A program made the position numbers and the translations under genes. Positions 33,578 through 57,527 of a stretch of DNA of 64,000 nt are shown piece by piece (positions within the stretch are counted from its first letter, which is position 1; the number at the start of each line of letters is the position of its first letter). Under the pieces are notes generated by a model. That model was not told where the DNA came from, did not search any database, and saw nothing but the letters and a program-made list of their open reading frames with translations. This DNA is from Rebecca billardiae RCC1528 (lineage: Eukaryota; Protista; Haptophyta), in the NCBI GenBank assembly GCA_965240325.2, contig OZ251226.1, forward strand, positions 2,170,001-2,234,000. The letters run 5' to 3'.

Positions 33578-34965
<1,388 letters not shown>

Positions 34966-35153
34966 ATAATTAACAAATTATAATGCTTCGTCAATGTCTT
35001 ATTAGGTTTGAACTGACTACTGAGTAACGTATACTCGCCATGTGACAGTGCGCGCATGACCGCGGATGAGAGTCATGAGATACCATCAGCGTTAATCATG
35101 ATGCCGAGAGCTGATTCAGCCGGCGCTGGCGCCTGGCTCCTGGACCTGGTCAG

Positions 35154-38094: not shown

Positions 38095-38227
38095 CGCGCG
38101 TCGTCGTCGATGGGATGCGTCGAAGGTTCAGGAGAGCTTTGCGGGCGCGCGGGCGACAAACCGTCGTCGCGCAAGCACTTTAGTCCGGGGCGCGCGGCCG
38201 CCATCGTGATTGGGCACAACCGTGCCA

Positions 38228-38793: not shown

Positions 38794-39441
38794 CAGTGAT
38801 GGATCCCATCAGCGAGGCTCACCCGGGCAATAATGATCGTACCAGCATGGCAGCATCGCCTCTGGGCAAGAGAAGCGCACTTTGTGAGGGCGATGGCATT
38901 GTGCACGTGCGGCTGCTCGGATCGTGAGCCGCTCGGGCATTGCCCGTGGCACTCGTCCAAAGCGCCGCGCCGGGTAACTGCCGACGTGGCCCCGCGGCAT
39001 CATCACAGATCACTGCGACCGATCGAGCACGCTGCTGCTCTGCCAATTAGTAGTCGTAGACAGTAGTCTGGCTACTAGTGAAGCGCAGGGATAGATGTAC
39101 GTACGTAGTAGGAGTTGGCAGCACAGCACCGCATCAGCACAGCTGCGCGGACCGGGCTGACGGTGCGTAGGATACCGTTCGATCAGATTGTCCATTGATG
39201 ATGACTAATTGAGTCATCATCAATGACGACGACTGCTACTGCTTACTAACTTTACTAATAAGTCATCACAAGCGTTATTATAATTCGTCATGATTATGAA
39301 TCAGTGATGAGTCTGTCAGAACTAGCGCGATCCAGCGTGCGATGGGCCGCCGATGGCTCGCGCACGTCCGGCAGACTCCGTCGTGATCGATGACGATGAC
39401 GATGATGATGATGACCGCCGTGATGCTGCTGCCGCTCGTCA

Positions 39442-40126
39442 TCATGTCGTGGGTTGCGCCCCAGCAAGGGCGGCCGCGTGCGCGGCCAGCTGGCCGGAGG
39501 GATCGGCACCCGACGCCGACGGCGCGCGAGTCCGCGAGCCGCGCCGCTGCTTGGCACCCAACCCGACAGCGGCCGCGCGGCCCGAGGGCGGCTCCGAGCT
39601 CGAGCGTGGCGGGCGCGTGTGTGGCACGAAGAGCGCGTTCGGCGAGGGGTCGCCGCGTGTGGGCGAGCCCGCCGTCGCCATGCGCGGCCCCACCGTCGGC
39701 GCGCCGTCCGCCGTCGGAGGCGGCGCGTGCAGGGCCAGACCGCGGAAGGCGCGGCGCGCCTTTGTCAGCAGCTGCGGCGCCGGGACCGTGGTCGATGGCG
39801 ATGAGCGCCTGACGGTGGGGTCGCGGCCGCCTGCGGAGCCCGCGCCGTCGCTGACGGGGCTGGCTGAGTCCGCCGCGCTGACCACCGGGCCACCCGTGTA
39901 CAGCTTGAGCTTCTCCTCCACCATCGTGAACGCGTCGAGCAGTGCGCTCGTGTAGGGGTCGGCGCCTGCGCCGCCGCCCGCGCCCGGCGCGCCGTCCGCA
40001 GCCGCGCCCGCCGCTGCGTCCGCACCGGACAGGTTGTCCTTGAGCTGACGGAGCCAGAGCCAGAACATCTCGTGCGCGTCGGTGGCGGCGAGGAGCTCGG
40101 CCCTCAGCGCCGTCGCCTGGTGGGAC
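39442..40126 (-). pseudogene. Detached 3' part of the kinesin gene
   Basis: Joins in frame with 56152-59564 when the PLV is removed, giving ...EADEL-SHQATALRAELL... with continuous coiled-coil character. Confidence 0.85.
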
Positions 40127-40408
40127 GTGTGTGGGGGTATACGGTGCCGCCACCCCACCCCGCCTCCCCAGCCCTCCCCCGAGCCTACGACTCATCATCC
40201 CCGGTTCTCAGTCGAGCCACATCGAGCCACATCGAGCCACCCCGCCGCCACCCCACCCCGCCTCCCCAGCCCTCCCCAGCCCTCCCCAGCCCTCCCCAGC
40301 CCTCCCCAGCCCTCCTCCGAGCCTTCGTCATCCCCGATTCTCAGTCGACCCCCGCCGAGCCTTCGGTGCCACCACCCCGCCGAGCCTTCGGTGCCACCAC
40401 CCCGCCGC
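40127..40408 (+). repeat. Left TIR (282 bp, starts GTGTGTGGGGG)
   Basis: Reverse complement of 55870-56151. Contains five CCTCCCCAGC units (40261-40310). Confidence 0.95.
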
Positions 40409-40580
40409 ATCCACGTCCCACGAGCCACCATCCCACCACGAGCCCCGAGCCGCCCCACGAAGCCCCACGAAGCCCCACGAAGCCCCACCGTACTGAACTC
40501 ATTTTTGAGCATTCCCTCGGCCCCTCGTGGCTGACGACGAAACACTTGCGCCCTGGCCGCGTCACTAAGGTTTCGTCGGA

Positions 40581-40846
40581 CGCCCTCACAGAGCCCCACG
40601 AAGCCCCACGAAGCCCCCACGAAGGCGGTTCGTAGTTAAAGACAAGCGGTCTAGGTGAAAAAGCGCCCTCACAGAGCCCCACGAAGCCCCCACGAAGCCC
40701 GTGGCGGTTCGTAGTTAAAGACAAGCGGTCTAGGTGAAAAAGCGCCCTCACAGAGCCCCACGAAGCCCCACGAAGCCCGTGGCGGTTCGTAGTTAAAGAC
40801 AAGCGGCCTAGGTGAAAAGCGCGCTCACGGAGCCCCACGAAGCCAC
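40581..40846 (+). repeat. Subterminal tandem repeat, about 3 x ~79 bp, with nested GAAGCCCCAC units
   Basis: GGCGGTTCGTAGTTAAAGACAAGCGG(T/C)CTAGGTGAAAA occurs three times. Confidence 0.9.
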
Positions 40847-41278
40847 GCACCGCGCGATGGTTACCCCAACGGTCTCGCTCCCGCTCGACCGTGACTCGAC
40901 GTGGCTCGACGAGGGCCGGCGCACGGAGGTGCGCAAGCCATCGGGTAAGTACCTGAGCGACCATCACGCTTCGCGACGGCTACCTGAGCAAGCGCCTCCA
41001 GCGCACTCGCACCTTTGATCTCATCGACATCGAGCTGCTCGATGCTGAGGCCTACATCAAACTGTACGATACGCCTGTGTTCGAGGTAGCCGATGCGGTG
41101 CGCGGCATGGCCATCAAGGGCAAGGTAATCGTGTACCACTTCCGCTAAGAAGGCTTCTTTAGCGGTGTCGCCTTAGGAGCAGGCATCAAGAACGCAATCC
41201 AAATGAACTGGCCAATGCTGGTTCCGGCTACAAGCGCAAACAGCAGAGCACACCACATAGGAGCGGCTAAGATTTCAA

Positions 41279-42067
41279 TTAAGACCCACGAAGTGCTGCC
41301 AGCGCCTCGGCAGCATCCCTCTCTCGCATGATTTCTCGAACGAGATTTATTCTTATCTTTAGATTTGCCGCAATTGTCTGCTCTAGAATTTCGGGAGTCC
41401 AGCCCAGCTGATTAGATCTCGCTAAGAAGTTATCGAGGTATGATATGATTCTGCCTTCGGCAATCTTCTTGTTAGTAGTTCGAGTGGAGCTTCTGACCAC
41501 AGGTAGTTCATTATCAACGGACGAACCCCCAGACGAGTCCGGCACTGGCGGGACTCTGACAGAACTCGAGCGGCTTGGTCCGGCGGGGGAAGGCGTCGCG
41601 GGTACGAGGATCTTCGCGGGCGTTGCGGGCGCGGGTCTCCCCGCAGGACGATTGGCGGAGTCAGAGCTCGTCATAGTAGGCGCCGGCTGAGAGCGCACCA
41701 CCAGCCGCGAGATTGGCTGACCGCTGGCATCGCGTTGCGGGAATTTTAGGTGCTTCGCATCGTAGTGGCCCTCATCCGTCGTGAACTGGCCGAGGTCGTA
41801 CACGCCGGGGGCGACGCGCCCAAAGCTGGTCTTGGTCTTGGTAGGCGGGCCTCGCCTGGCGATCGTGACCAGCGCAGGCAATATCATGGGTTTCTTATGA
41901 TGCACGAGCTTGCGCGAGCTTGGACCTGGATGCAAGCCTGACCACCAGCCGTCTTTCTTGCCACGGTGGTGCATGGCACCGGCATACGGCGTGCCGTTCA
42001 GCGTGAAGTGAGTCACTCGCGCTGGCACCGTGTCGCGGAAGGTATGATGATGGACTGCAGTCGCCAT
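41279..42067 (-). CDS. PLV hypothetical protein
   Basis: 262-aa ORF with CAATAACATG start context, 17 bp downstream of the ATPase gene. Confidence 0.7.
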   Translation of the reverse strand: MATAVHHHTFRDTVPARVTHFTLNGTPYAGAMHHRGKKDGWWSGLHPGPSSRKLVHHKKPMILPALVTIARRGPPTKTKTSFGRVAPGVYDLGQFTTDEGHYDAKHLKFPQRDASGQPISRLVVRSQPAPTMTSSDSANRPAGRPAPATPAKILVPATPSPAGPSRSSSVRVPPVPDSSGGSSVDNELPVVRSSTRTTNKKIAEGRIISYLDNFLARSNQLGWTPEILEQTIAANLKIRINLVREIMRERDAAEALAALRGS

Positions 42068-42084
42068 GTTATTGCTACCGCGGA

Positions 42085-42789
42085 TTAATTTTTAATGCGC
42101 AGTCGATTCCACTCTCGGTACAAAATACCACCATCAACGTCCATGAACATGAACGTGTGCGGACGCTCATTTCCGAATATGTAGTGATAGACGCCCATAA
42201 AGTCCACCTTTGACATGGGGATAAGCTCGGAGTGCAGCGCGGTGAGCTCGCGGGAATTGTTCGGACGAAACATGGTAATATTTGAAAAAAGCTTGCGCAC
42301 ATTCAGCGGCACGCTCATATAGCCTTGCGCGATCACGATGATCGAAAGCCGGATATGCCGTCGATTCTGCACCATCTTGGCGTAAGCCTTTTGCAGGTTT
42401 GCGTCGCGCAGGCTGGCCGCGAAATCGTCAATCACCAGCAGCGTTGGACGACCGCCGGCGGCATTCTCCTCGGCGATGTCGATGATTTCGTCCAGGACCG
42501 CGCCATGAAATTCGTTGTACACAAATTCCAGGTCGCGCAGCGGCGATTTGGCGAACGAGTCCATCGAGGTCTGCGGCGCGCACCAGATAACATTCCCAAA
42601 GACGCCTCGGTAGGGGCCAGTGATCAAACCAGCCACCTGACTCGACTTGCCACTGCGTGGCGGACCAAACACGCCCCAGTGGAAGGTCAGGTTGGGCAGT
42701 GGCTCGGGTAGGCCCACCTTTAACGGCTTGTCCGCCGTGATGCGCGGCAGTCTCAGATCGACTTGATTTGCCTCTTCGGCAATCTGCAT
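42085..42789 (-). CDS. A32-like (FtsK-HerA) genome-packaging ATPase
   Basis: Walker A GPPRSGKS, Walker B LLVIDDF, and the RRH...IIVIAQ motif. Confidence 0.93.
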   Translation of the reverse strand: MQIAEEANQVDLRLPRITADKPLKVGLPEPLPNLTFHWGVFGPPRSGKSSQVAGLITGPYRGVFGNVIWCAPQTSMDSFAKSPLRDLEFVYNEFHGAVLDEIIDIAEENAAGGRPTLLVIDDFAASLRDANLQKAYAKMVQNRRHIRLSIIVIAQGYMSVPLNVRKLFSNITMFRPNNSRELTALHSELIPMSKVDFMGVYHYIFGNERPHTFMFMDVDGGILYREWNRLRIKN

Positions 42790-42804
42790 TTTAGATAGAG
42801 CTTT

Positions 42805-43203
42805 CTAGATGTACCTCAGTTTTCTTTGTGGGGGTGCCGCACTCGGCGCTGCCCTCGGCGGCGCCCGCGACGGCGCCCGCGGTGGTGGTGGCGCTCGCGT
42901 AGACTCGATTGGCTGGTCGTCTTCGAGCACCAGCGTGTCCTCGTCGGGCTCCTTCGGCGGCGGCGGCGGGGTCATGCGCTTGATTGGCGGAGGCTCTGGC
43001 ACTGGCACAGTAGCGTTCAACTCGTCGATTTTGACTTGCTCTTGGGCCGCGAGATTGGCGTACCGCTGGGCGTACTCGGTGTACGTGTTTCGCAGCTTGG
43101 CCAAGCGCATCACCTCGGTGGTTTTGATCTGCGCTGCCGTGCGTGCTTTGGGCTGCTTGATCGGCACGGCGAGCGCTGGCGGCGGCGGCGGTGCCTCGTC
43201 CAT
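42805..43203 (-). CDS. PLV proline-rich/coiled-coil hypothetical protein
   Basis: ATAAAATG start, packed 15 bp upstream of the ATPase. Confidence 0.7.
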   Translation of the reverse strand: MDEAPPPPPALAVPIKQPKARTAAQIKTTEVMRLAKLRNTYTEYAQRYANLAAQEQVKIDELNATVPVPEPPPIKRMTPPPPPKEPDEDTLVLEDDQPIESTRAPPPPRAPSRAPPRAAPSAAPPQRKLRYI

Positions 43204-43249
43204 TTTATATCTGTTCTAGAGATAATAGACACTCCATTTTGATCGAAAA

Positions 43250-43483
43250 ATGGATCCCGCCATGTTTGATTTTTCGTGGGAGGCGGCCGCCAGATTCATC
43301 GCGCGCAAGCGGATGGGTCCTGGCTTGGACGATGAGATCATCGACGCAATCATCGACCCAATCGTCGCCCCAAATATCGACGTAAATATCTCCGCCACTG
43401 TCAATGACGACTCACCGGCTTCACCTGCACACGGCTCAGGCGGACCGCTTCCCGCTGGGGCGGACGATGACGAGCGCTGCTGA
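43250..43483 (+). CDS. Small PLV hypothetical protein
   Basis: AAAAATG start. Overlaps the start of the minor capsid gene. Confidence 0.4.
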   Translation: MDPAMFDFSWEAAARFIARKRMGPGLDDEIIDAIIDPIVAPNIDVNISATVNDDSPASPAHGSGGPLPAGADDDERC

Positions 43484-44165
43484 CTTTACGCTGAGCCATC
43501 CCATCATGGCCACCCACGATGAGAGCATCCTCGTCGCCGTCGAGTCGGTAAGCTTCCCGTCGTGCCGTTATGCGGTCGACGGCTCCAACGGCTCGATTGG
43601 TCTCGCCGGGAATTGGGGCGACACCACTATGACGATCCCACCCAAGAATTACACAGCCACTTCGCTCGCCACCGCGCTGGACACGCTCTTTGCAGGCTCG
43701 CCGGTCAACGCCACGCTCACGGTGACCTTCGACGCATCGCGCGGTAAATTCACGTTTGCCAATTCGAGCGCCAACCCAATCACGGTCAAGGGCTCGTCCA
43801 CCGCGACGCGCGTCTTGGGCCTAGCGCAGTCGGATCTCATCGTGCCAGCGACTGGGAGCATCGAGGCGCCTGCCGTGGTCGATCTGATTCCGCGCGGCTA
43901 CCACCTCGTGTGCGAAGGCCTCGACGTAAAGTCGCGCGACTCGACCTTGAACTCAGGCTCGACGAGCAATATTCTCGTCACCATCCAAAATACGGTCGCG
44001 TTCGGCCAAGTCCTCGCGTACCAGAGTCAAACAGACGACCTCCTCGAGACGAACCGCCGCTCAGTACAAAATCTCGATCTGCGCCTCCTCGATTCTGAGA
44101 CGATGACTGAAGTGAATCTCAACGGCGCCGAAATCTCGGTCGTGCTCAAATTTGTCGTTGTGTAA
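43404..44165 (+). CDS. Minor capsid protein (penton)
   Basis: IPPKNYT, GKFTF and C-terminal LDLRLLD...VNLNGAEISVVLKF are typical of polinton/PLV pentons. Lies immediately upstream of the MCP. Confidence 0.8.
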   Translation: MTTHRLHLHTAQADRFPLGRTMTSAADFTLSHPIMATHDESILVAVESVSFPSCRYAVDGSNGSIGLAGNWGDTTMTIPPKNYTATSLATALDTLFAGSPVNATLTVTFDASRGKFTFANSSANPITVKGSSTATRVLGLAQSDLIVPATGSIEAPAVVDLIPRGYHLVCEGLDVKSRDSTLNSGSTSNILVTIQNTVAFGQVLAYQSQTDDLLETNRRSVQNLDLRLLDSETMTEVNLNGAEISVVLKFVVV

Positions 44166-44204
44166 TTTTAAAAAAAATGTCGGAGTCAAACACACACACA
44201 TAAA

Positions 44205-45518
44205 ATGGCGTACGCCGGGCGTTACATGAAGAACGACATTCGCGCGGACGAGGCGATGGTGCTTGAGCAGGAGGAGACAGCACCGATGTATTATGACTTT
44301 GCCAACCCCAAGCCCGTGGCCGTCGGTGCTACGTACAAGCGCACGACCGTCTATGCCGGACCGGCGTCGACATTCTCTCCGGGGCAGGTGGTGCAGTTCG
44401 ATCTGCCTACGGGCACACCAGGCGCTATGATGGATCCAAGTCAGAGCGTCGTTCAATTCACGATTAACAACACCTCTGGCACCTCTCTGACTCTCTCGCA
44501 GAGCGCTTACAGCCTCATCGAGCGCATCGACGCCTATCACGGCTCTCAGATGATCGCCTCGGCGGGCAAGGCGGGCCTGCTGCACAATCTCCTGCTGGAT
44601 TTCCAGTCGGGGCCTTCGTCGTGCTTCTCCACTGCCTCGATGCTCGGCAGCGCCGATTATGATGTAACCGCCGCGACTCTGTCGCAGGCGACGATCAACA
44701 ATGCTCTCAACGTGCCTAAGGGTGCGGTCATCGCGAATGGCGCTTTGCTCACTGTGTGCCTCCCGCTTGTGTACGTGTTCGGTGCGCTCTGCGGCAAGGC
44801 CATCCCCATCTCCGAGCTGCACCAAGGCCTCCGCGTGGACATTCACCTCGCGCAGACGAAGGACTGGGGCGTCTACACGATTGATCCCGGGGCTATGCCA
44901 TCGATCCAGGACGTCAAGATGCAGCTGGGCACGGTGCTGCTCTCGGATTCGGCCTACACCAAGATTGCGCGCAGCCTCGACCACCTCTACGTTCCGTCGA
45001 TGAGCTACCTCCACGCGCAGCACTCAGTATCGCCCAACACCGCGACGAGCTGGCAGCTGCCCTTCCGCCTCGCGAGCGTCAACACGATTATCATCGCCGC
45101 CTATCCGGATGCGAACAGCAATGCTTACGCGGGCGATGTCACGCTGCGCACTCGCGCGGCCATCTCCAAGTGGCAGCTGCGCATTGGCTCGACGCTCGTG
45201 CCAGACCAGCCGGTCAGCGCGACGAATGGCGCTGCCGAGACGCGCGCGGAGCTCGTGCGGGCGTTCAACGCACTTGGCGTCGCCGACTACGCTTCCAAGG
45301 TGAATGGCGCGCGCTTCGCGAACTCAGCTTTTGCCATCGCATTCAACACGTCGGCATTCTCGCAGTCCGACATTCTCTTCGACGGTCGCCGTCTGGACAC
45401 GGAGCACGCCATTTTCGAGGCCGATAGCAACCACGGTGCGCCGTTCACGTGGCATGCCTGGGCGCTGCACGACGTCATGATGGAGGTCGCGCAGAACCAG
45501 CTCCAGTTCGCCGTGTAA
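44205..45518 (+). CDS. Major capsid protein (double jelly-roll, inferred)
   Basis: 437 aa, beta-rich. Motifs FSPGQVVQFDLP...MDPSQSVVQF, SLIERI, LPL, LRVDIHL and WQLRIG...VP. Located beside the penton and ATPase. Confidence 0.85.
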   Translation: MAYAGRYMKNDIRADEAMVLEQEETAPMYYDFANPKPVAVGATYKRTTVYAGPASTFSPGQVVQFDLPTGTPGAMMDPSQSVVQFTINNTSGTSLTLSQSAYSLIERIDAYHGSQMIASAGKAGLLHNLLLDFQSGPSSCFSTASMLGSADYDVTAATLSQATINNALNVPKGAVIANGALLTVCLPLVYVFGALCGKAIPISELHQGLRVDIHLAQTKDWGVYTIDPGAMPSIQDVKMQLGTVLLSDSAYTKIARSLDHLYVPSMSYLHAQHSVSPNTATSWQLPFRLASVNTIIIAAYPDANSNAYAGDVTLRTRAAISKWQLRIGSTLVPDQPVSATNGAAETRAELVRAFNALGVADYASKVNGARFANSAFAIAFNTSAFSQSDILFDGRRLDTEHAIFEADSNHGAPFTWHAWALHDVMMEVAQNQLQFAV

Positions 45519-45550
45519 AAAATAAAAAAATATGATAATTATACACCGAT

Positions 45551-45844
45551 ATGTCATTTCTTGGCAGGCTCACGCGAGGCATTCGCGGTCGGCTCGGCGG
45601 GCTGGCAAACACAGCGCGTCGACTCGGCCGCCCCATCAGCTCAGCGGCGCACCACCTGAAGCCGTGCGTCGACAAAATCGGCGGCGACGTAAACCAATTT
45701 TTGAATGAAATAGACCGCACGGAGGGCCTCGGCGACGTCGCCAGCCCCTACACTGGAGCCGCGCGGCGAGCGGTGAATCGCGGGCGCCAGATCGCCGGAC
45801 GCGCGGACGCGGCCGCCAGCCGGGCGGATCGTTACTTGCGCTAA
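45551..45844 (+). CDS. Small basic protein with N-terminal amphipathic helix
   Basis: MSFLGRLTRGIRGRLGGLANTARRL, directly after the MCP. Confidence 0.7.
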   Translation: MSFLGRLTRGIRGRLGGLANTARRLGRPISSAAHHLKPCVDKIGGDVNQFLNEIDRTEGLGDVASPYTGAARRAVNRGRQIAGRADAAASRADRYLR

Positions 45845-45926
45845 GAATTACCGAGCGCTCAGAATTACCGAGCGCTCAGAATTACCGAGCGCTCAGAATT
45901 ACCGAGCGCTCAGAATTACCGAGCGC
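45844..45926. repeat. 17-bp tandem repeat AGAATTACCGAGCGCTC (about 5 copies) between convergent genes
   Basis: Four full units and one partial unit. Each full unit contains the palindrome GAGCGCTC. Confidence 0.95.
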
Positions 45927-45929
45927 GGA

Positions 45930-46574
45930 TTATCGAGCGCGGTGCTGATTCAAAGCGAACAAAGCTGGGCTCTGTAGAGCGTCCACAAAGCTGGCACGCC
46001 CGAGGGTCTGCCGGCGCCCACCACGCTGCGTAACCGACAGCGCACTCACTATATCACCCGGCGAGCGGGTATCGAATTGGCTTTTCGGCAAAGCCTTTCC
46101 GATATCTTTTAGACCGGCCGCTTTTTGTGACGTGTGAATCTGCGAGGCGCCGCTTTCTTCCGCGAGGTGCCCACCCAGAGAGTGCCCCACCGCAGCGGCG
46201 GGCTGGCCGTATTTGCGCTTGACGATCTCCACCAGCTTGCGCGCGCGCGCGTGGCGTGGGTCCTTGGCGCTCAATCCCAGCGCGATCAGGACGTCCGACA
46301 CGGCCCAGTCGGCGAATGACGCCGAGCCTCGGAAAAGTACGACGGGCCGACCGCTCGCGATGTGCACGGCTACTTTGTCCGCTTCATCCGACAGGCGCTC
46401 ATCAAGTCGGTACCCGCGCTTGGCTAGGTGCGGTCGGGCTGCCGCCTTGCTCATATAGCTTGCCTCGATGAGGAACTTGCGATCTCGGGCGAGCGTAGCG
46501 CCGGCGTCCCAGGCCGCTTTCGCGACGCGCGCTTCGCCTTCGGCGGTTGATACAGTGGGTACGGCTCGCATCAT
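45930..46574 (-). CDS. Lipase-like alpha/beta hydrolase (class 3-like)
   Basis: VLFRGS...DWAVSD, GHSLGG nucleophile elbow, DIVS and a terminal His. Confidence 0.88.
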   Translation of the reverse strand: MMRAVPTVSTAEGEARVAKAAWDAGATLARDRKFLIEASYMSKAAARPHLAKRGYRLDERLSDEADKVAVHIASGRPVVLFRGSASFADWAVSDVLIALGLSAKDPRHARARKLVEIVKRKYGQPAAAVGHSLGGHLAEESGASQIHTSQKAAGLKDIGKALPKSQFDTRSPGDIVSALSVTQRGGRRQTLGRASFVDALQSPALFALNQHRAR

Positions 46575-46615
46575 TATGGTACCGGTACCACTGATTTTTG
46601 GCTCTATGGGACTGT

Positions 46616-48769
46616 CTATGGCGGCGGCGTGAAGAGGTCATAGTCGCTATCTACGTCGGTCTGGGTGAGCGCACCGTCAGTATAGAAGCGCACGGCCGCG
46701 CACTTGAACGGCCCGCCACTTGGGGGCGTGCTCACGTAAATTTCGTTGACGTCGCCCACGGCGGTGGCGCTCATGGCCTCCGCGCCGAGCGACACCTTAT
46801 TCAACCAAGCCTCCATATTCCCTCCGACTGTGTACGACCAGGCAATATGGTACCAGGTGTTCAGCGGCAGCACATCCACGCGATCATACAAGTTGCCTGA
46901 CTGCCCTGTAATATCGAATCCAAACGCGGTGTTGCCCACACCATTCCTGTACAAGTAGAAATGCACGACCTTCGAGCCTGCATTACGCCATTCGAGCTTG
47001 AAGCTGCCCGACACATCATCCACGAAGACCCACGCTGAGAAGCCAAAGGTCGTCATCGTCTGCGTCGGCACCGGTGCAGTCATCACCAGACCGCTACTGA
47101 GATCTGCATAGCCATTGGTGTGCGTTGCGGTCCCAGTCGACACCGTAAAGGCATAGCTACCCACATCGTCGGTCAAATTCGCCGTCATCGGCCAGCTGGC
47201 AAATGGAGCTAGAGCTTGCTCAGGCGTGTACGAATTCATCACCGTCGGCACGTGGATGATACCGCGCGCGATCGACATCGCGTAGAGGCGCACACCTGCG
47301 GGCATGGTGGCAAAGCGGTGCCCAATGATGCTGAGCAGCGGGGTAAAAGTGGCCGGCAGCGCAGCAGTACTCACGAGCACGCCATCGATATATATTTTGG
47401 AGACTGTGCCATCCACCGTTTGCGCAACGTGGTGCCATCCGCCGTGTGCCGGCCCTGCCAAGTCCTGGAACGCTGTCGCGCCGAGCTCCGAGCGCAGCTG
47501 GCCAGCGATGATTTCGAACGTGAAATCGGTGACGCCATCCTCGAGGAGCCACATGCGCACGCTATCTTGATCGTTCGGGCGGTACACCCATGCCGCCAGC
47601 GAGAACCGGTCGCCGCCGAGCATGTCGGGCATCTCGTTGAGGCCCAGGTGCAGCGTGCTAGTACTTTGCATTTCGAGATACCCGCTCGTCATCAAATAAT
47701 CGCCGGCCGTGGGCTGCAGCGCGGCGGCGGCCCCGTCGACCTCGAGCAAATCCCCATCGAGCAGCCACGTGCGTCGAACCACCACACCCCGCCACGACTC
47801 GGCGTGGGTCAGCCGCTCCGACGCGTCCAGCGCGCGCGGCCAGACTCCGAGGTGCGCAGCGGCACCGTATTGGGCGAGACCGATTTTAGTGGGATAAAAC
47901 AGAGAGAGCCGCTTCTCGCCTGCCAAGCTGCGGGTGTGCACTAATGTGTGATCGACGAATATTTGGGTGTTTGCCTCATCTTGTACGAGCGCCACGTGTT
48001 TCCACTGGTCACGGTTGTCCTCGTCGAGCTGGTTGGACGCCGACGTAAATTCGAGCGAGGTCTCGCACATGGTATTTGCGGTCGGGGCTTCGAGGCGGCA
48101 CTCGGCGAAGGCAATCGCGCTACCCTGGCGCACGTAGGAAGTGCCCAGCGCCGGTGGGCCCCTCAAGTAGCAGCACACGGTCAAATTCCCGTCGTGGTGG
48201 CCCGGGTGGTCCACGGTGAGCGTCACCCCATCTGCGGCGGCCTCGATGGCCTCATTACCGAACGCGGTGGTCCCGACCAGAGCCAAGGAGAGCCCCCGGT
48301 CGGCCGTGTCGAGCAAATCAGCATTTAGCGGGAAATTCACGAGCGGATTTTGAAAATAGCTTTGCGTTACGACGCCATTGACGACGGCCCCGTCGAGCGA
48401 GTACACGCCCCGCCCGCTAATCGGAAAGCTCGTGATTGCTTGGCCGTCGAGGAGCACATCAAAGTACGGGTGGATTTCTTCGTCGAACACGCGGTTGACT
48501 CCATCGTGATATTGACGGGTCCACGTGACGCTCAGGGTCGTCGGCGTCAGGGTTGCGCTGGTCACTTTGAAAGCATCACGGTCGCCCGCCAAGCGCAGCG
48601 TCAATTCGCCATCAGGCAAAGCCGGGTCAAAGGTCGCCGACAAGCTGCCTTCACCGGTCATGGTGGTGCGCACGACGCCGGACCACGCCACGGCGCCCGT
48701 CCCGAGCGCCTGGACGGATCCATCAATGGCTGCGGAGGTGCTCGATGAGTCGCCAAAAATCGACGACAT
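46616..48769 (-). CDS. Multi-LamG/concanavalin-A-like domain protein (putative fibre/adhesin)
   Basis: Three repeats: WKHVALV...IFVD, WHHVAQT...IYIDGVL and WYHIAWS...WLN, two preceded by SLAAWV or FSAWV. Confidence 0.8.
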   Translation of the reverse strand: MSSIFGDSSSTSAAIDGSVQALGTGAVAWSGVVRTTMTGEGSLSATFDPALPDGELTLRLAGDRDAFKVTSATLTPTTLSVTWTRQYHDGVNRVFDEEIHPYFDVLLDGQAITSFPISGRGVYSLDGAVVNGVVTQSYFQNPLVNFPLNADLLDTADRGLSLALVGTTAFGNEAIEAAADGVTLTVDHPGHHDGNLTVCCYLRGPPALGTSYVRQGSAIAFAECRLEAPTANTMCETSLEFTSASNQLDEDNRDQWKHVALVQDEANTQIFVDHTLVHTRSLAGEKRLSLFYPTKIGLAQYGAAAHLGVWPRALDASERLTHAESWRGVVVRRTWLLDGDLLEVDGAAAALQPTAGDYLMTSGYLEMQSTSTLHLGLNEMPDMLGGDRFSLAAWVYRPNDQDSVRMWLLEDGVTDFTFEIIAGQLRSELGATAFQDLAGPAHGGWHHVAQTVDGTVSKIYIDGVLVSTAALPATFTPLLSIIGHRFATMPAGVRLYAMSIARGIIHVPTVMNSYTPEQALAPFASWPMTANLTDDVGSYAFTVSTGTATHTNGYADLSSGLVMTAPVPTQTMTTFGFSAWVFVDDVSGSFKLEWRNAGSKVVHFYLYRNGVGNTAFGFDITGQSGNLYDRVDVLPLNTWYHIAWSYTVGGNMEAWLNKVSLGAEAMSATAVGDVNEIYVSTPPSGGPFKCAAVRFYTDGALTQTDVDSDYDLFTPPP

Positions 48770-48801
48770 TAATAAAGGGCCTCTTTAATAAGGCATGAGA
48801 T

Positions 48802-49074
48802 ATGAATCGCCGCCTAAAACGGTCTACGCGCAAAGACAAGCGATTCATGCTGACTTCGCCGGGTGGTCGGACGCTCCACTTTGGCGCGCGTGGCGGGTCG
48901 ACGTACATCGATCATGGCGATCCTGCGAAGAAATCGGCGTGGATCGCTCGCCATCGCCACGATAAGGGCTGGGACGACCCCGAGTCTGGCATCTATTACA
49001 GCCGCCACTTGCTGTGGGGCGACTCCAAGTCGCTCGCTACGAATGAGAGTAAAATCGGAGTAATAATTAGCTAA
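48802..49074 (+). CDS. DUF5754-like small viral protein
   Basis: KRF...LHFG.RG.STYIDH.D..KK..WIARH...YYSRHLLW pattern. Confidence 0.75.
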   Translation: MNRRLKRSTRKDKRFMLTSPGGRTLHFGARGGSTYIDHGDPAKKSAWIARHRHDKGWDDPESGIYYSRHLLWGDSKSLATNESKIGVIIS

Positions 49075-49083
49075 AAAGCCAAG

Positions 49084-49734
49084 ATGAAATCATCGCAATT
49101 CCAAATGGCTATGAAAAACGCCAATTTGCTCAAGCGCACTCCGGAGGGAAAGCCGGCGGCAGGCTTGTACGTGATTGCTCCGGGGTGGGACACTTCTAAC
49201 CGTTTGTTCAAAATGGGGCTCACCGCTAATATTGTGAGTCGAACCTTTAAAGGCTATCGCCATATGATGCCCTACGCCAAGCCCGGGAATTCGTTCAGGT
49301 TAGTCGGGTTTTTGGTCGTGTCTCCGAATTTGGTCTTCCCCGCCGAGAAGCGCCTGCTCGCGCTCACAAACCCCGGCTTTGGCTTCGTCAAGCCGCCGCT
49401 CGATAAGGAGTGGCGCAAAATTTCCGATCCGGCAAAGCTCGAAGAGAACGTCGCCCGGCTACTGACGCGCGCGCGCCGCCCCGTCGATGGAAAATGGTAC
49501 GTGTTCGACAAGGCAGGGAAGGTCGTGCGCCAAGGCGGGCGCGACCCGGACGTCGAGCAAAACAACATCATCCCCGCCGGCGCGAACGTGACCACGCGTT
49601 CGAACGCCAATCGCCGTGCGCAGGTCATCACCGCGCGATTCACGGGCCCTATCACCGGCATTCGCAGCGAGGGTATCCGGTTACTGCGTCCGTCCGCGCG
49701 GCCGTCCGCTCGCAAAAAGAACCCCTCAAAATAG
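49084..49734 (+). CDS. GIY-YIG superfamily (T5orf172-like) nuclease-domain protein
   Basis: GLYVI...FKMGLT.NI..R...Y, with downstream E and KEW. Confidence 0.6.
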   Translation: MKSSQFQMAMKNANLLKRTPEGKPAAGLYVIAPGWDTSNRLFKMGLTANIVSRTFKGYRHMMPYAKPGNSFRLVGFLVVSPNLVFPAEKRLLALTNPGFGFVKPPLDKEWRKISDPAKLEENVARLLTRARRPVDGKWYVFDKAGKVVRQGGRDPDVEQNNIIPAGANVTTRSNANRRAQVITARFTGPITGIRSEGIRLLRPSARPSARKKNPSK

Positions 49735-49840
49735 TATCGAAATAGTATCATGCCGCCAAAGTCTCGGAAGCGCTCCGAGCGAGCACCTTCGAGTGTTTTT
49801 GACCCATCTAAATTGTGTGATGGCGTGGCGCTCAGACCAG

Positions 49841-50353
49841 TCAGTCCTCACCATCAGAATCTGCGAACATCGGTTGATCCGCGGGAGGCGCGCTTGGCGC
49901 GCTTGGCGAAGCTCCGCCTCGCTGACGTGACCACGAGCGCGGCCACAACACGTCCCGAAGGCTTGCGGGCGTAGCCGATTGAGAGATCGGCGCCCGACCC
50001 GGCTCGCCGTACGCCTCGCTGATAGCGACAATTTTGCGGGTAATTTTGAACGATTGTGCCATGCCCGCAGTGGGGCCCTCCACGAAGGGCTCGCTGAGTC
50101 TACCCACGATGCAGTGCTCGTTGAAGAACTTGGCGTCGACCACTTCGATGCCGCCAAAGTGACTCTCAATGGCGGTTATTGATGTCACCGTGAGCGACCC
50201 GGGGCGCGCGCTCGGCTTGGGCGGCTTGGCGACGACGACACGCTCGAGAGCCACCACGCGCTCCTTGAGGCTCTCGAACTCAGTGCGCATCTCGCGGCAA
50301 TCGCGGCAGCGACAATCGTGGCGAGCGGAAACGTCAAAATCGCAGGGGGGCAT
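49841..50353 (-). CDS. PLV hypothetical protein (CxCxxC + coiled coil)
   Basis: AAAACAAATG start; CRCRDC followed by a heptad pattern. Confidence 0.6.
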   Translation of the reverse strand: MPPCDFDVSARHDCRCRDCREMRTEFESLKERVVALERVVVAKPPKPSARPGSLTVTSITAIESHFGGIEVVDAKFFNEHCIVGRLSEPFVEGPTAGMAQSFKITRKIVAISEAYGEPGRAPISQSATPASLRDVLWPRSWSRQRGGASPSAPSAPPADQPMFADSDGED

Positions 50354-50411
50354 TTGTTTTTACTACTACTAGTGCGTGAGAAAATTATTTGAGCTGAGAA
50401 AAACGCGCTAA

Positions 50412-53400
50412 CTAGTCCATCGCCGCTGCGAGGGCGCCGGCCCTGATGCGCCAGTGATTGAGGGCGATTGTGCGCTCGGCCGAGAGATGGTAGCCCTTAT
50501 CGTCGACCCAATCGAGCACCTTCTTCACGCGCCGACTGAAAACAATGTTGTGATTTTTATATTGCAGATCGTGGTACTGCGCGCTGACGCTCGAACTCTC
50601 CAAAATCGTCGTCTCGTAGTCGTCGTGCGTGAGGCTATTTTGCACGCAGCGGGAGGGGGCACCCTTGGCTCGGTGGACGTCCTCAAGCTCGTCCTCGAGG
50701 CTCTTGAGCGTCTTGATCGAGTAGGTCTTCGCCCGCACAAAGGCCACTGCTATAGCCAAATTGTCGCCGAGCTCATCCTTGAAGAAGCCCGGTGTCTTGC
50801 GGTTTGCGTCCGTGAAGAGCGGGTGTCCCTCCGGAAACTTGCTCATGTCCAGCCATTCGTCGCGGATGCTGAGCATTTTCTCCAAATAGGCCTCGTGCGA
50901 GGGCGCCCGGAAATTCATGATGAGCGAGTCGGTGTCAGTCCCGAGCAGGCGGGCGTTCTTCGGTCCGAAGGTGGGGTAGACCACATTATACAAAAACGTG
51001 TACATCCACAGCTTCGAAAAGTCAAGGATCGAGGCGCCCACGAAGATGGGCTTGTCACGCACGTACTCGCGCTTGCTCATCGTCACGAGCGCAAACTCGG
51101 GTGCGATCGGCTTGTAGGTGAGAGCCCGGTGACTCGTCATGGCTCGAGTGAATGCCGCTCGGTTATCAATGAATCGCGCTTGCGTGTGGTGGTAGATCCG
51201 CTCCATCGTCTTGCCGAAGCACGCGTTCACCATGAGCTTGAAATACCCCTCCTCGAAAGGATTCTTGCCCTGCTTGCGCAGCCGCGTGTTGAGGTCCACC
51301 CACGGGCGCAGCCACGGGCTTTGCTCGAACTCGACGACCCGATGCACCTTGGTGAGCTCGAGCCCCTGCGCCAGCGCAAACTTGAGCATCGTGACGTTGA
51401 GCGTGTAGTGTTTGCGGGAGCCAAGGTGCGCAATCAGCTTGGTGGTCTTTACGGCGCGCTTGCCCCGCTGCATAGGCGAGAGCATCTCGTCGGGCACTTC
51501 CATTACCTCGGGGAGTAACGGGTAGTCGCTGTGCAGGTCGTGCAAGCGGTCAGGGTAGTCGATGTCCACCGTCACGAGCGCCCCCACATCGCCTTGCCAC
51601 TCCTCGCACGGCTGATTCGGTCGCGTCGGGAGCCCGCCGTAGCGCGGATCGTTAACATCGAAGCGCTCCGGATCGACATCCGTATACCCACCCGTTGGCA
51701 GCTTCCACGACATCACTGAGGCATAAAGTGCGTTGGCGTCAAAGTCGTGGATTGCTGAGAATTCTTTGGCGGGATCATATTCAGGAAGATCCGGGTGGTT
51801 CGCGCGTGCGATGCGGTTGCGCGCCATCGACATGCCTCCGCGGAGCCCGGACTCGGCGTGCTCGTACAGGTCGCTCGTGGGGATGCTCTCGAGGCTCACG
51901 CCTGTGAGCTTGAGCATGGCCTTCCACGCGAACTGCGAGTTGGAGATGCAGTACGCCGGATCGAGGCCGTACGTGTTCATCGAGGTCTTGCGGAAGGCAC
52001 GCATGCAATCTTGGAGCCCGCAGACGTCAATGCTGAGGTACAGATCGTGGAGATCACGCCACGTGATGATGCCGGTCGCCTCCTGCAGGCGGCTCATGCG
52101 CTCGGGCAGGCTCTCCTCGAGCTCCTTTTGCTCGGCCTCCAGGCGCTCCTCCAGCTCCTCGTCGGTTTTGCCGTAGCCTTCGCTCAGCTTGGAGCCGAAG
52201 AACTGAGGATCTGCGCTGATGGGCTCGTCGAGGTGCTGGTGCCAATCGAACTCGTACGGGAAGACTTGCTTGTGCTTGAAGGCCTCGAAGACCGCATCCG
52301 GGTCCTTGCCGAAGCGCTCGGCGTGCTCGTTGGCCGCCCGGCGCAGCGAGTGCTTGTCCTCTGAGGGCAGATTCTTCAGAGATTCCGCCAAGCTTCCACC
52401 CAGAAAAGTCATCGAGTCGAGGATGCGGAAGGCCCCGATCTCGAGCGTCTTGAAGCGCTCGGAATTGATCACCATGGCGTTCATGCGGACCTTGTGCTCC
52501 TTGATGCGCGCCTGAACGCTCACGTCGGAGAGCGCCTGCATGATGAGCTGCGAGTCGTAGGACATGTTATGAAAGTACACCGGTATGCTGCTGATGAGGC
52601 TCGGCGTGCCGTGCTTGAGGTTGCACCGCGAGTGTGCCGCGCCGCGGTAGAGGCCCGTGCAGTGGCAGTGGTCGAGCACCTTGCGCTTGGCTCGGACCTC
52701 CTCGAGCGCGCGCTTCAACTCGTCCTTTTCCTCCGGCGCGAGTTTCGACTTGAGCTCGTACTCCGCTTCGGCGCGAGCAATCTCCGCGCTCGAGGCGAAG
52801 GCAGCCTCGCCGCAAAAGTGGCACGTCTCGCTCGCCTCAAAGTGCTCGCGGTCGGCCGCGGTGACCTTTGAAAAGTCGTCCTTGTAGCGCGAGCACGCGT
52901 CGCGGATCTTGGGGGTGGCGTCGAGCAGCGCGTGCAAAAATCGCACACCCGCATCCGGACCCATGAAGCTGCAATCCATGTCAGGGGCGTCCATGCCGTC
53001 CTGGAAGTCAAACTTGAGGCTCACCGATTGCGCCTTCTGATGCGTCTCCCCGTTGACTTGCGTGTTGACCGCCTCAAAGTCGGCCACCGCTACTACCGGC
53101 TTCCACACGACTGAGGTGTCCTGCGAGTAGGTGATGTCCGTCTCGGTGCGCTTGAGTTCCTGAGGCGTCCTCGCCTGGCTCTTAATCTCGTCGAGCGTCC
53201 ACGGCTGAAACAGGTGGCGCCAGTTGGCGTTGCACTGCGCGGTGTGCTGATCGCGGATTGCCTTGGTCCTGAAGCGGCGCGTGCAGATGGGGCAGTGCGC
53301 GCAGTTGTGTGCACGCTCGCTGAGTAGCTTGTCCAGGTCCTTGACGAAGACGTAGTGGTCCTCGTACGCGAGGATGTTGATGAGCGTGCGCTCGCGGTAC

Positions 53401-54992
53401 TTCTCCGGCGTGGTCGTGTGAATCGGCACGATGGGGTACTTGAACTCGTCCGTGTCCTCGGGGTGCTCGTGATGGTCCTCCGAGGAGCGCTTGACTTGCT
53501 CGAGCGAGAAGACGTTCCAGGTGAGGGTGGGGTTGACCTCCTCGAGGCGCGGGATGTCGGTGCAGTCGAACGGAAACTTGACCTCCTCCGGCCATGTGAT
53601 CATCGACTCGTAGCGCTTGAGCGTGCTGGTGCGCTCCTGCTTCTTGGCGCCATCTGCGTTCGCAAAGTGCATGAGCGACGCCCACAGGAAGCATTTGTTG
53701 TCGGTCTTGTTCTCGGGATTGATTAGGCCCTTGCTTCCGCCGCCAAACTTCTGCGGGAGCTTGACGTAAGACGAGCCCTGCTGGCGGACGGCATTGATCG
53801 GATAGGTGTCCACGTCAAAGCTAAGGAGACCCACAAATCGCCGCGCGCTGTACTGCGGATTGCTCGTGGAGGTGACGAGCGCGAGTATCTCCGCGACCTT
53901 GGTCTTGACTTGCTGCACGTCCTCGGGGTTGCCCTTGTCGATGACCAGGCGCGCCGTCGAGTTGTCGAGCTCCTTCGCGCCCGCGGTGACCACGCCAAAC
54001 TCGTAGAAGCCCTTGTTCAAGGCGGTCGGATTGTACTGGTCGTTCTGGTTTTTGAATGCGCGCGCGTGGAGCCTAATCTCCTCGCGGGTCTTGAGCTGAG
54101 CGACCTCGTGCATGGTTGCTGCAAAGGGATCCGCCTCCCAGGTGAAATCGGACGTCTCGACGGCCTTTCCGTTCTTGGTGGATTTGCTAATCGTCACCTT
54201 GGCGTGCGCGAATATTGATTCGAGTCGAATGTGCATCGAGAGCCGGCTGTACGGTATCTCCTGCAGGCGGGCGTCAATAGTCGCATTAATCGTCTGGAGA
54301 ATCGCTCCGAGGTGGTGCTGGCTCGGCGTGTAGTTCAGCTGCTGCTCCAGGAGCAGCCCAAGATTCTCGTGCAGAATCCACTTGAGCGGCATGATAAAGC
54401 GCTTGCGGTCGATAAATTCGAAGTATCGATCCTGCATGCTCGTGGAGAGCATGGCGAGGTTCCGATCGACTTCCAGCTGCGTGCGCTGGGCGTCCGTCAG
54501 GCGGTTTGCGAGCTGGGAGCGAGTGAAGCGCTGGAGGAGGCTCGCGGCGCGGTCGCGGTCGGGCGCGCGGCGGGCGGGCGTGCGGCGGGGCGCGGGGCCG
54601 GAAATCTTGCTGGCGACGCGCTCGGCGAGGGCGTCGAGCTGTCTGCCGTTGGAGGGGATCTTGCGCCGCTTACCGCTCCACGGATCTTGGTAGAGCATGC
54701 CGGCGAGGACTTGCGGGGCACTCATGCCGAAGCCCTCGAATGCGTCTTGGAACTGGCGGATGCGCGTGAGCTGCTCCTGCGTGTATTGGCTGAGCGAGCG
54801 GCTGGTGGAGCGGAGGCCGGTGGCTGGCGTCGAGTTGGGGGTGCCCGGCGGAGACTGGAATGCTCTCGCGATGGAGTTCGTGCGTGCTGCTGCGGTAGCG
54901 CCTAGGCGGCTCGTGATCGGAATTTCGATGCGAGGGGTGCGCTCGTTGAGGCGCGCGCGGGCATTTCGGATGAGCTCATCAACGTTCATCAT
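50412..54992 (-). CDS. pPolB: Protein-primed family B DNA polymerase polyprotein
   Basis: ExoI ADFE, ExoII FHNMSYD, ExoIII YLSIDV; polymerase motifs DANALY, KLMVNACFGK and TDTDS. N-terminal DNKCFLW...HY, a C2H2-like finger and an endonuclease VII-like insert. Confidence 0.97.
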   Translation of the reverse strand: MMNVDELIRNARARLNERTPRIEIPITSRLGATAAARTNSIARAFQSPPGTPNSTPATGLRSTSRSLSQYTQEQLTRIRQFQDAFEGFGMSAPQVLAGMLYQDPWSGKRRKIPSNGRQLDALAERVASKISGPAPRRTPARRAPDRDRAASLLQRFTRSQLANRLTDAQRTQLEVDRNLAMLSTSMQDRYFEFIDRKRFIMPLKWILHENLGLLLEQQLNYTPSQHHLGAILQTINATIDARLQEIPYSRLSMHIRLESIFAHAKVTISKSTKNGKAVETSDFTWEADPFAATMHEVAQLKTREEIRLHARAFKNQNDQYNPTALNKGFYEFGVVTAGAKELDNSTARLVIDKGNPEDVQQVKTKVAEILALVTSTSNPQYSARRFVGLLSFDVDTYPINAVRQQGSSYVKLPQKFGGGSKGLINPENKTDNKCFLWASLMHFANADGAKKQERTSTLKRYESMITWPEEVKFPFDCTDIPRLEEVNPTLTWNVFSLEQVKRSSEDHHEHPEDTDEFKYPIVPIHTTTPEKYRERTLINILAYEDHYVFVKDLDKLLSERAHNCAHCPICTRRFRTKAIRDQHTAQCNANWRHLFQPWTLDEIKSQARTPQELKRTETDITYSQDTSVVWKPVVAVADFEAVNTQVNGETHQKAQSVSLKFDFQDGMDAPDMDCSFMGPDAGVRFLHALLDATPKIRDACSRYKDDFSKVTAADREHFEASETCHFCGEAAFASSAEIARAEAEYELKSKLAPEEKDELKRALEEVRAKRKVLDHCHCTGLYRGAAHSRCNLKHGTPSLISSIPVYFHNMSYDSQLIMQALSDVSVQARIKEHKVRMNAMVINSERFKTLEIGAFRILDSMTFLGGSLAESLKNLPSEDKHSLRRAANEHAERFGKDPDAVFEAFKHKQVFPYEFDWHQHLDEPISADPQFFGSKLSEGYGKTDEELEERLEAEQKELEESLPERMSRLQEATGIITWRDLHDLYLSIDVCGLQDCMRAFRKTSMNTYGLDPAYCISNSQFAWKAMLKLTGVSLESIPTSDLYEHAESGLRGGMSMARNRIARANHPDLPEYDPAKEFSAIHDFDANALYASVMSWKLPTGGYTDVDPERFDVNDPRYGGLPTRPNQPCEEWQGDVGALVTVDIDYPDRLHDLHSDYPLLPEVMEVPDEMLSPMQRGKRAVKTTKLIAHLGSRKHYTLNVTMLKFALAQGLELTKVHRVVEFEQSPWLRPWVDLNTRLRKQGKNPFEEGYFKLMVNACFGKTMERIYHHTQARFIDNRAAFTRAMTSHRALTYKPIAPEFALVTMSKREYVRDKPIFVGASILDFSKLWMYTFLYNVVYPTFGPKNARLLGTDTDSLIMNFRAPSHEAYLEKMLSIRDEWLDMSKFPEGHPLFTDANRKTPGFFKDELGDNLAIAVAFVRAKTYSIKTLKSLEDELEDVHRAKGAPSRCVQNSLTHDDYETTILESSSVSAQYHDLQYKNHNIVFSRRVKKVLDWVDDKGYHLSAERTIALNHWRIRAGALAAAMD

Positions 54993-55105
54993 ACTACAAG
55001 CGAGGATTTTGTGTTATGATGGTGGTTGACATTTTTATTTGGCGCCAGAATAACGCGCGTACGTTTCTCCCTACGCCGACTCGGCGCGGATCGCCGATTT
55101 TTCCC

Positions 55106-55759
55106 CTAGGCGGCGGCGCGCGCCGCCGACTTTATTTGCGCGTCGCGCTCCGCCGAGGATGCGCCCTTGCTCACGAAGCGCGCCCGGCGGATGCGCACCT
55201 GCTCGAGGTGGCACTCGTAGCAGTTCATAGTGCGCGTCACGCTGCCGCCTCGGCGGCGGCGGAAGGCGAAGAGCTCGAATGGCACCTCGCGGTTGCATTC
55301 GGAGCACTCGATGTTCTCCTCTCTGTGCGCCTCCAATTCTTCCTCCGGAGGAAGCAAGCGCCTTGACTTTTGCTTGATGGTCTCTTGCGTGAGGCGATGA
55401 CGGCCGGAGGAAGCGTTCGTGTCGATTGGTACGAACACGTTGTTCTTCCGCTCCAGCGTGACCGGCTTGATGCCGAGCGCCTGCTCGAACGCGTCGTCAA
55501 AGGTGCGCTCGCTCACGCCGAGGTCCCTGAGGCTGTTGCCGTAGAAAATGAGTCCGTCACTATATTTGCATGCCCGACCGCCTGAGTACTCGAAGCGCAC
55601 CGTGGCGTGGCGGACGCAGTGCCAGCGCTCAGAAGGGTGGAAGTGGATCAAGTGGCGGAGTGCGTCCGTGAGGTCCACGAACCAGCGTGACTCGTATTCC
55701 TCGTCATCGGCGAAGCCGGGTGCTCCGGTGCGTGCTTCGCAAGTCACACGCCAGGGCAT
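55106..55759 (-). CDS. PLV hypothetical protein with C-terminal CxxC...CxxC
   Basis: CSECNREVPFELF...MNCYEC; AT-rich segment upstream. Confidence 0.7.
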   Translation of the reverse strand: MPWRVTCEARTGAPGFADDEEYESRWFVDLTDALRHLIHFHPSERWHCVRHATVRFEYSGGRACKYSDGLIFYGNSLRDLGVSERTFDDAFEQALGIKPVTLERKNNVFVPIDTNASSGRHRLTQETIKQKSRRLLPPEEELEAHREENIECSECNREVPFELFAFRRRRGGSVTRTMNCYECHLEQVRIRRARFVSKGASSAERDAQIKSAARAAA

Positions 55760-55869
55760 GATAGGTCAGTATTATACACGTGCGTAAGATTTTATATTGC
55801 ACCGAAATAAACGCGGTGGCGGCGTGGCGGGCGGTGGCAGGGGGTTGGGGTGGCGGCGGCGTGGCGGCG

Positions 55870-56151
55870 GCGGCGGGGTGGTGGCACCGAAGGCTCGGCG
55901 GGGTGGTGGCACCGAAGGCTCGGCGGGGGTCGACTGAGAATCGGGGATGACGAAGGCTCGGAGGAGGGCTGGGGAGGGCTGGGGAGGGCTGGGGAGGGCT
56001 GGGGAGGGCTGGGGAGGCGGGGTGGGGTGGCGGCGGGGTGGCTCGATGTGGCTCGATGTGGCTCGACTGAGAACCGGGGATGATGAGTCGTAGGCTCGGG
56101 GGAGGGCTGGGGAGGCGGGGTGGGGTGGCGGCACCGTATACCCCCACACAC
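55870..56151 (-). repeat. Right TIR (282 bp, ends CCCCCACACAC)
   Basis: Reverse complement of 40127-40408. Confidence 0.95.

Positions 56152-57496: not shown

Positions 57497-57527
<31 letters not shown>

Follow-up and report, generated by a model that had tools for sequence, protein, structure and literature searches.

A whole endogenous Polinton-like virus (PLV) lies within a kinesin gene of the haptophyte Rebecca billardiae RCC1528. The stretch analyzed, called the window below, is 64,000 nucleotides long (contig OZ251226.1, positions 2,170,001 to 2,234,000), and its first letter is position 1. The virus is bounded by perfect terminal inverted repeats (TIRs), its insertion into the gene appears to be seamless, and no integrase was recognized among its scanned open reading frames (ORFs). 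The insertion is described by the following features:

40127..56151, no strand: whole endogenous PLV, 16,025 bp
40127..40408, plus strand: left TIR, 282 bp; begins 5'-GTGTGTG and contains 10-, 13- and 25-bp tandem units
55870..56151, minus strand: right TIR, a perfect mirror of the left TIR
56152..59564, minus strand: 5' part of the host kinesin, encoding the motor domain and the greater part of the stalk in 1137 codons plus 2 nt
39442..40126, minus strand: 3' part of the host kinesin, 1 nt plus 227 codons and the stop
40125..40126, plus strand: AC dinucleotide common to the host and the last two bases of the element (56150-56151); a blunt join or a 2-bp overlap, indistinguishable from one site

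The two TIRs are identical at 282 of 282 bases and do not extend outward into the flanks, in agreement with the original prediction of a provirus bounded at 40127-56151 by repeats of exactly this length. When its imperfect part is included, the inverted repeat measures 303 nt at 97% identity. The GC content is 0.61 in the element versus 0.78 in the 5' part of the kinesin. The PLV is near-intact and, as had also been predicted, probably recent, since the TIRs are identical and all motifs of its protein-primed PolB (pPolB) are present. CpG decay is uninformative as an age signal, the observed-to-expected ratio being 1.24 in the element and 1.26 in the host. An unusual hairpin at the end of the TIR was considered and rejected (z 0.71). 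The TG..CA ends that lie one base inside the TIRs were rejected as a substrate for an rve integrase, those boundaries being without a target site duplication (TSD).

Removal of 40127-56151 in silico produces a minus-strand ORF of 1365 amino acids (4098 nt; 59564 to 39442) that contains a kinesin motor (PF00225, E 7e-91) and carries the P-loop and switch motifs. The predicted restoration of the kinesin frame is thereby reproduced. The boundaries of the element can be placed at shifts of 0, -1 and -2 only, which is the 2-bp AC/GT ambiguity that had been named as the sole one, and there is no flanking duplication of at least 4 bp for any boundary within 6 nt. An ambiguity of at least 2 nt is found by chance at 23.5% of 4050 kinesin positions and at 20% of 47,927 host positions. 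Because a 2-bp ambiguity occurs at this chance level (20-24%), the AC overlap was rejected as a meaningful recombination core. The empty site is identical to the TIR-TIR junction at 10 of 50 positions, with nothing similar beyond 2 bp, and it is not palindromic. An att-like target was therefore rejected as well.

An open frame proves only that the net change is divisible by three, and the rejoined kinesin was therefore compared with an orthologue, a check that the original prediction had proposed. The only homologue of the kinesin stalk is P0055 of Pavlovales sp. CCMP2436, to which the stalk aligns at 44%. A mitochondrial carrier that flanks the locus is 77% identical to a protein of the same alga, its closest named match among 52. 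Together, the two matches make a host from the Pavlovales likely. The tail of P0055 has no in-frame alignment to the rejoined kinesin. Its gene model seems to us to have slipped into a shifted frame there, the last ~100 residues of the public CCMP2436 kinesin model being apparently read in the wrong frame. A first scoring, which measured identity in that frame, put the downstream register 1st among 331 but the matching upstream register only 5th among 436. A second scoring, devised after the first result, used true-frame log-odds over the residues compatible with each P0055 residue pair. Five upstream and three downstream segments, which overlap, were each scanned independently over 89-134 registers, and the same kinesin-P0055 diagonal was the best in 8 of 8 segments (z 3.3-6.1), so that both halves of the kinesin lie on one diagonal. 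The upstream 57 residues score 44.6 bits in register and -8.9 to 6.2 bits when shifted by 1-3 codons; the margin is small for the 20 residues beside the junction (15.1 vs 13.2 bits). As judged from one orthologue, no kinesin codon is gained or lost at the insertion, and the claim of a seamless, TSD-free site holds at the level of codons.

The occupied allele reads 1286 amino acids, consisting of 1137 kinesin residues followed by element sequence. The 227 C-terminal residues are thus lost and the motor is kept. The terminus of the PLV offers GT dinucleotides at offsets 0, 2, 4, 10 and 17, so that every frame is covered. On the minus strand, the GT located 10 nt inside the right TIR (56142) and a host CAG located 10 nt past the left end (40117) would make a splice with zero net change. 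Such a pair, which was noticed post hoc, has a chance of 5.8% if the acceptor must be a YAG and of 18.5% if any AG is allowed. From these positions, the whole virus could be spliced from the kinesin transcript like a giant intron; a 16-kb intron holding genes on the same strand would be unlikely. One sequencing run compared with 36960-40160 gave one 151-bp contig, which lies away from the left junction and is informative neither way.

The remaining features of the element are as follows, from left to right:

40436..40844, plus strand: left sub-terminal region of repeats (units of 10 bp, and a 79-bp unit in 3.2 copies) without a called gene
40857..41148, plus strand: small gene, ~96 codons long, whose frame shifts by +1 near 40955; no family matched
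41279..42067, minus strand: ORF of 262 aa with an N-terminal domain, a Ser/Pro-rich linker and a helical tail; no integrase signal
42085..42789, minus strand: packaging ATPase of the A32 type, 234 aa, with the Walker A, Walker B and NRRH motifs; match to PF04665 at E 2.7e-4, under the gathering score
42805..43203, minus strand: Pro-rich ORF, 132 aa; no family
43250..43483, plus strand: possible small ORF of 77 aa after an AT-rich gap; no family
43404..44165, plus strand: candidate minor capsid (penton) protein (mCP), 253 aa; expected position and size, no profile match
44205..45518, plus strand: double jelly-roll (DJR) major capsid protein (MCP), 437 aa; AlphaFold pLDDT 90.8, Foldseek
45551..45844, plus strand: basic ORF, 97 aa; no family; followed by a 17-bp tandem array (45838-45926)
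45930..46574, minus strand: alpha/beta hydrolase, likely lipase; GHSLGG motif
46616..48769, minus strand: LamG-repeat protein, 717 aa, likely attachment protein; PF13385 E 4e-23
48802..49074, plus strand: Tlr6F (DUF5754), 90 aa; PF19058 E 2.7e-16
49084..49734, plus strand: 216-aa ORF; GIY-YIG-like pattern, by regular expression and eye only; no profile match
49750..49974, plus strand: ORF of 74 aa, overlaps the next ORF and may not be a gene; no family
49841..50353, minus strand: ORF of 170 aa; no family
50412..54992, minus strand: pPolB; PF03175 E 2e-7; all exonuclease and polymerase motifs; EndoVII-like motif
55106..55759, minus strand: 217-aa ORF, zinc finger in its C-terminal part; phrog_1035, profile 43-106 of 271

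The model of the MCP matches the PBCV-1 capsid (Foldseek E 1.7e-18, TM 0.65) and other DJR capsids. The protein has 437 relatives among 1.84 billion representatives. The nearest of them (74% identity) is on a short contig, and relatives at ~29% identity occur in Diacronema lutheri (4 accessions) and Pavlovales CCMP2436 (2), in both cases on long contigs. Scans of IMG/VR gave no relative of the MCP, pPolB, the ATPase, three related MCPs or the terminal 18-mer, and a metagenome scan with the MCP gave none. Matches of the terminal 18-mer on 4 metagenome contigs are taken as chance, nothing being similar beyond the 18-mer itself. The ORF at 43404-44165 is presumably the minor capsid protein, a label given from its position. 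DUF5754 is called Tlr6f in PMC12220804. Neither a capsid maturation protease family nor an Ulp1/adenain-type cysteine protease was found on the scanned ORFs of the element (Pfam, PHROGs, NCBIfam). With a DJR MCP, an A32 ATPase, TIRs, a size within 14-40 kb and no maturation protease detected, the element is a PLV in the broad sense of the group definitions drawn from PMC11071308, PMC7805220, PMC12480563 and 10.64898/2026.06.19.733378.

The ORFs of the virus had been described as uninterrupted. This is true of the 14 main ORFs, but not of the small gene at 40857-41148, which changes frame near 40955. The GC content at its third codon positions is 0.85 in frame A before the break and 0.81 in frame B after it, and the break is flanked by a 9-bp repeat whose two copies (40950-40958 and 40981-40989) are 31 nt apart. 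An AT-rich leader precedes each of the other 14 viral ORFs (0.53-0.83) but not this gene (0.23). Directly upstream of the gene (40602-40844), and at the left end of the element only, a 79-bp unit with an AT-rich core stands in three tandem copies. An ASCH-like look of this gene, noticed by eye, is unsupported even when the gene is read through the break with X.

Seven ORFs are without a firm assignment, and only three of the family-less ORFs exceed 200 aa (262, 217 and 216). The single-sequence model of the 262-aa ORF is unusable (pLDDT 43.9), and the Atlas gave nothing usable for it. For the 217-aa ORF, the Atlas returned nothing but clusters of the zinc-finger type, under 0.9. The zinc finger of this ORF resembles the N-terminal part of phage EndoVII proteins, the catalytic part being unmatched. 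The original prediction had also invoked nucleases of the virus itself. All that speaks for them is the EndoVII-like motif in pPolB and the GIY-YIG-like pattern in 49084-49734, which lend the idea little strength.

No rve, tyrosine or serine recombinase was matched on the scanned ORFs (Pfam E up to 0.1, PHROGs, NCBIfam), and the claim that the virus has no recognizable integrase thus stands. Two loose tyrosine-recombinase-like matches from a six-frame motif scan were rejected, as they lie in non-coding frames over other genes. Comparison of the family-less ORFs with PDB sequences gave nothing meaningful, and four proteins searched against phage genomes with tblastn had no match. As a control, the rve domain of a Copia element in the same window scores E 0.017 under the same Pfam threshold, so that the cut-off of 0.1 catches such an enzyme, but barely, and a highly diverged one might escape detection. 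This Copia-type long terminal repeat (LTR) retrotransposon (5877-12894) has 692-bp LTRs that are 100% identical and is recent. It ends in TG...TA instead of TG...CA, its gag (6531-8864) and pol (8390-12166) are in overlapping frames, and it is flanked by a 5-bp TSD, CATTT. The duplication shows the footprint left by an rve enzyme in this genome, and the virus, which has no such TSD, differs from an rve insertion. As a duplication of 4-6 bp is excluded at the virus, integration by an rve enzyme of the Polinton or retrotransposon type is unlikely.

Several other repeats are present in the window. The Copia element splits one copy of a 1.3-kb repeat (5180-5876 and 12895-13492), the second copy of which, ~98% identical, is whole (33671-34967) and follows an (AT)n run (33581-33676). 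Long diverged inverted arms, 85-100% identical in pieces, lie at 21156-22882 and 31615-33083, enclosing ~9 kb of host genes that include a sugar transporter and SAP18; the arms are possibly one repeat in opposite orientations. A near-perfect 900-bp foldback at 28382-29286, with arms of ~370 bp at 94-98%, is similar to a miniature inverted-repeat transposable element. A host ORF of 593 codons (18968-20749) contains four repeated units of ~70 aa and has a weak helix-turn-helix match.

Several known systems resemble the element in part. Polintons/Mavericks share with it pPolB, the A32 ATPase, a DJR capsid, TIRs of a few hundred bp and a length of 15-20 kb. Their rve integrase and cysteine protease were not detected in the element and their 5-6 bp TSD is absent, and on these marks it is not a Polinton. 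The PLVs similar to PgVV (Gezel-14T) have in common with it a haptophyte host, the MCP, A32, Tlr6F, the alpha/beta hydrolase and, with less certainty, an mCP and GIY-YIG (10.1101/2022.07.28.501842). In the element, however, pPolB takes the place of TVpol and the LamG protein that of the T4-like fibre, and no tyrosine recombinase (Yrec) is detected. The exact AAAATTGA early promoter of the PgVV-like viruses was not found in the element. Its MCP is ~29% identical to a D. lutheri MCP in a comparison whose tree is without the Gezel MCP. Three D. lutheri MCPs lie in the PgVV block of Table S4 of PMC10120064, and these may not be the MCPs matched here. A kinship of the element with the Yrec-rich PgVV group is probable, its placement there being indirect.

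The endogenous PLVs of Tetraselmis, above all Tsv-S3b, resemble the element in being integrated, bounded by TIRs, 16-19 kb long and equipped with MCP, ATPase and an mCP, for which the element has a candidate, and S3b has a pPolB. They differ in having a green algal host and in belonging to the TVS group, and S3b, unlike the element, has been shown to be encapsidated. In 2022, no integration gene was found in the PLVs of Chlorodendraceae (Tetraselmis) and the mechanism was called unknown (Chase 2022, PMC9356565), for which that paper is cited again in 10.64898/2026.07.28.741278. A 2025 preprint reports a tyrosine recombinase in the S2x subgroup and names only pPolB for S3b (10.1101/2025.10.09.676808). 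The parts covered of PMC9356565 and of this preprint contain no junction or empty-site analysis. Among the PLV clusters of cryptophytes, C1 has ~64 complete copies with neither enzyme out of 298, and C4 has ~83 out of 183, as obtained by subtraction; these are population counts, and section 10 of that paper has no analysis of the enzyme-less copies or of their empty sites (PMC12220804). The fungal mitochondrial plasmids pAL2-1 and kalilo are, like the element, linear, TIR-bearing and without an integrase, and they integrate whole and without homology, probably by break repair; they differ in being mitochondrial and capsid-less, and their flanks are usually rearranged into inverted repeats, whereas the site of the element is unaltered (PMC1864894). 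An earlier base-resolved, orthologue-checked and TSD-free site of an integrase-less PLV was not found in the literature, subscription papers and preprint supplements aside. The suggestion of an undescribed route is retained in part. The absence of a TSD and of a detected integrase is borne out, but integrated PLVs without an integrase have already been published (PMC9356565; Tsv-S3b), so that the route of entry is an acknowledged open question and not an unnoticed one.

The reading preferred here, to which a probability of about 0.42 is given, is that a linear PLV genome was captured whole at a host double-strand break by end joining. It is favored because it needs no missing gene and fits the absence of a TSD and of an att site. 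Further points in its favor are the intact, mirror-perfect termini, the unchanged number of kinesin codons, the lack of an integrase match in three profile libraries with only three family-less ORFs above 200 aa, and the contrast with the TSD of the Copia element. The virus would replicate as a linear molecule, protein-primed from its GTGTGTG termini. A full-length genome would then reach the nucleus and shed its terminal proteins. Host repair would ligate this genome into the break, either bluntly or with one end pairing via the 2-nt AC overlap. The allele might persist because 1137 kinesin residues can still be read from it, or because a second allele or ploidy covers the loss. The virus's own pPolB would copy it out again, probably on giant-virus infection, and clean excision would not be required. 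Precedents exist for parts of this process. In half of the cases, the integrase-less pPolB plasmids pAL2-1 integrate complete and without homology, and break repair has been proposed for them (PMC1864894). Tsv-S3b, a pPolB PLV for which no recombinase is named, is endogenous and becomes encapsidated after giant-virus infection (10.1101/2025.10.09.676808).

Several points weigh against end-joining capture. End joining is usually less clean than the zero loss seen at both the viral ends and the host site. A single insertion site is observed, the cruder first score placed the expected upstream register only 5th of 436 with the better score designed afterwards, and the sensitivity of the profiles is limited, a genuine Copia rve reaching only E 0.017. 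The insertions of pAL2-1 show truncated ends and rearranged flanks (PMC1864894). The Tetraselmis PLVs were without a detected integration gene in 2022 (PMC9356565), yet the tyrosine recombinase of S2x was found later. Yrec is the most widespread gene of this kind in PgVV-like PLVs (10.1101/2022.07.28.501842), and TSD-free insertion is the published signature of PLVs with a tyrosine recombinase (PMC12220804; PMC12721341). 

A bolder and quite doubtful reading is that a lineage of haptophyte PLVs with pPolB integrates routinely, conservatively and reversibly without a DDE, tyrosine or serine recombinase. It would do so through a new end-joining route that uses the protein-primed termini and one of the small family-less proteins and alters no base of the target. 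Splicing of the virus from the kinesin transcript would be a still bolder addition to this reading.

The conservative character of the site would also be expected if a tyrosine recombinase had acted in trans, from a co-resident or co-infecting PgVV-like PLV, to insert an end-joined circle of the genome. Helper PLVs are plausible, because related capsid genes are present on the long contigs of D. lutheri and Pavlovales CCMP2436, and the three D. lutheri MCPs of Table S4 fall in a Yrec-rich group. On the other hand, the enzymes with which pPolB is correlated are of the DDE class, not tyrosine recombinases (10.64898/2026.10.13.758929), and the empty site and the TIR-TIR junction are alike over 2 bp only. 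This route is the main rival of end-joining capture, though a somewhat unlikely one. The very cleanness of the site might instead point to an unrecognized enzyme of the virus itself, encoded by one of the family-less ORFs (262, 217, 216 and 170 aa) or contained in the N-terminal 400 residues of pPolB, and possibly to a nuclease with a 2-nt stagger that directs joining. GIY-YIG homing enzymes leave 2-nt 3' overhangs. Both the GIY-YIG-like pattern and the EndoVII-like motif are present, seven ORFs offer room for such an enzyme, and the 217-aa ORF adjoins pPolB at the end of the genome, a frequent place for replication and integration genes. Pfam, PHROGs, NCBIfam, PDB sequences and phage genomes gave no match to it, however, and neither did the Atlas results for the 262- and 217-aa ORFs. 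The globular-like runs, by a crude measure, span only 99, 130, 177 and 129 residues, and the 2-bp overlap is at chance level, all of which makes an own enzyme unlikely.

Alternatively, the element or its parent could have possessed a recombinase gene at the time of insertion and lost it since, for example near the left end, where 730 bp are without a called gene and the small gene is broken. The position of the break, between 9-bp repeats with a spacing of 31 nt, is in keeping with a small local event, though, and TIRs that are 100% identical next to 14 open main ORFs leave little time for such a loss, so that a deletion derivative is decidedly improbable. It is hardly credible that the assembly wrongly fused a free or episomal virus with a host contig. 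Both exact termini are found at one host position, the element and the host have no repeat in common (blastn, E < 1e-3), and the flanks rejoin in the register of the orthologue, for which a misjoin would have no reason.

Most PLV insertions are uninformative about the route of entry, as their original target is not known. In this case, the target is a coding exon whose state before the insertion is fixed by the reading frame and by an orthologue. Three routes that can be told apart remain for this site, namely repair by the host, a tyrosine recombinase borrowed from another element and a new enzyme. A new mechanism is not demonstrated by this one site, but the site makes the open question testable. 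If a new conservative and reversible route were true, it would change the view of how endogenous virophage-like defence elements spread.

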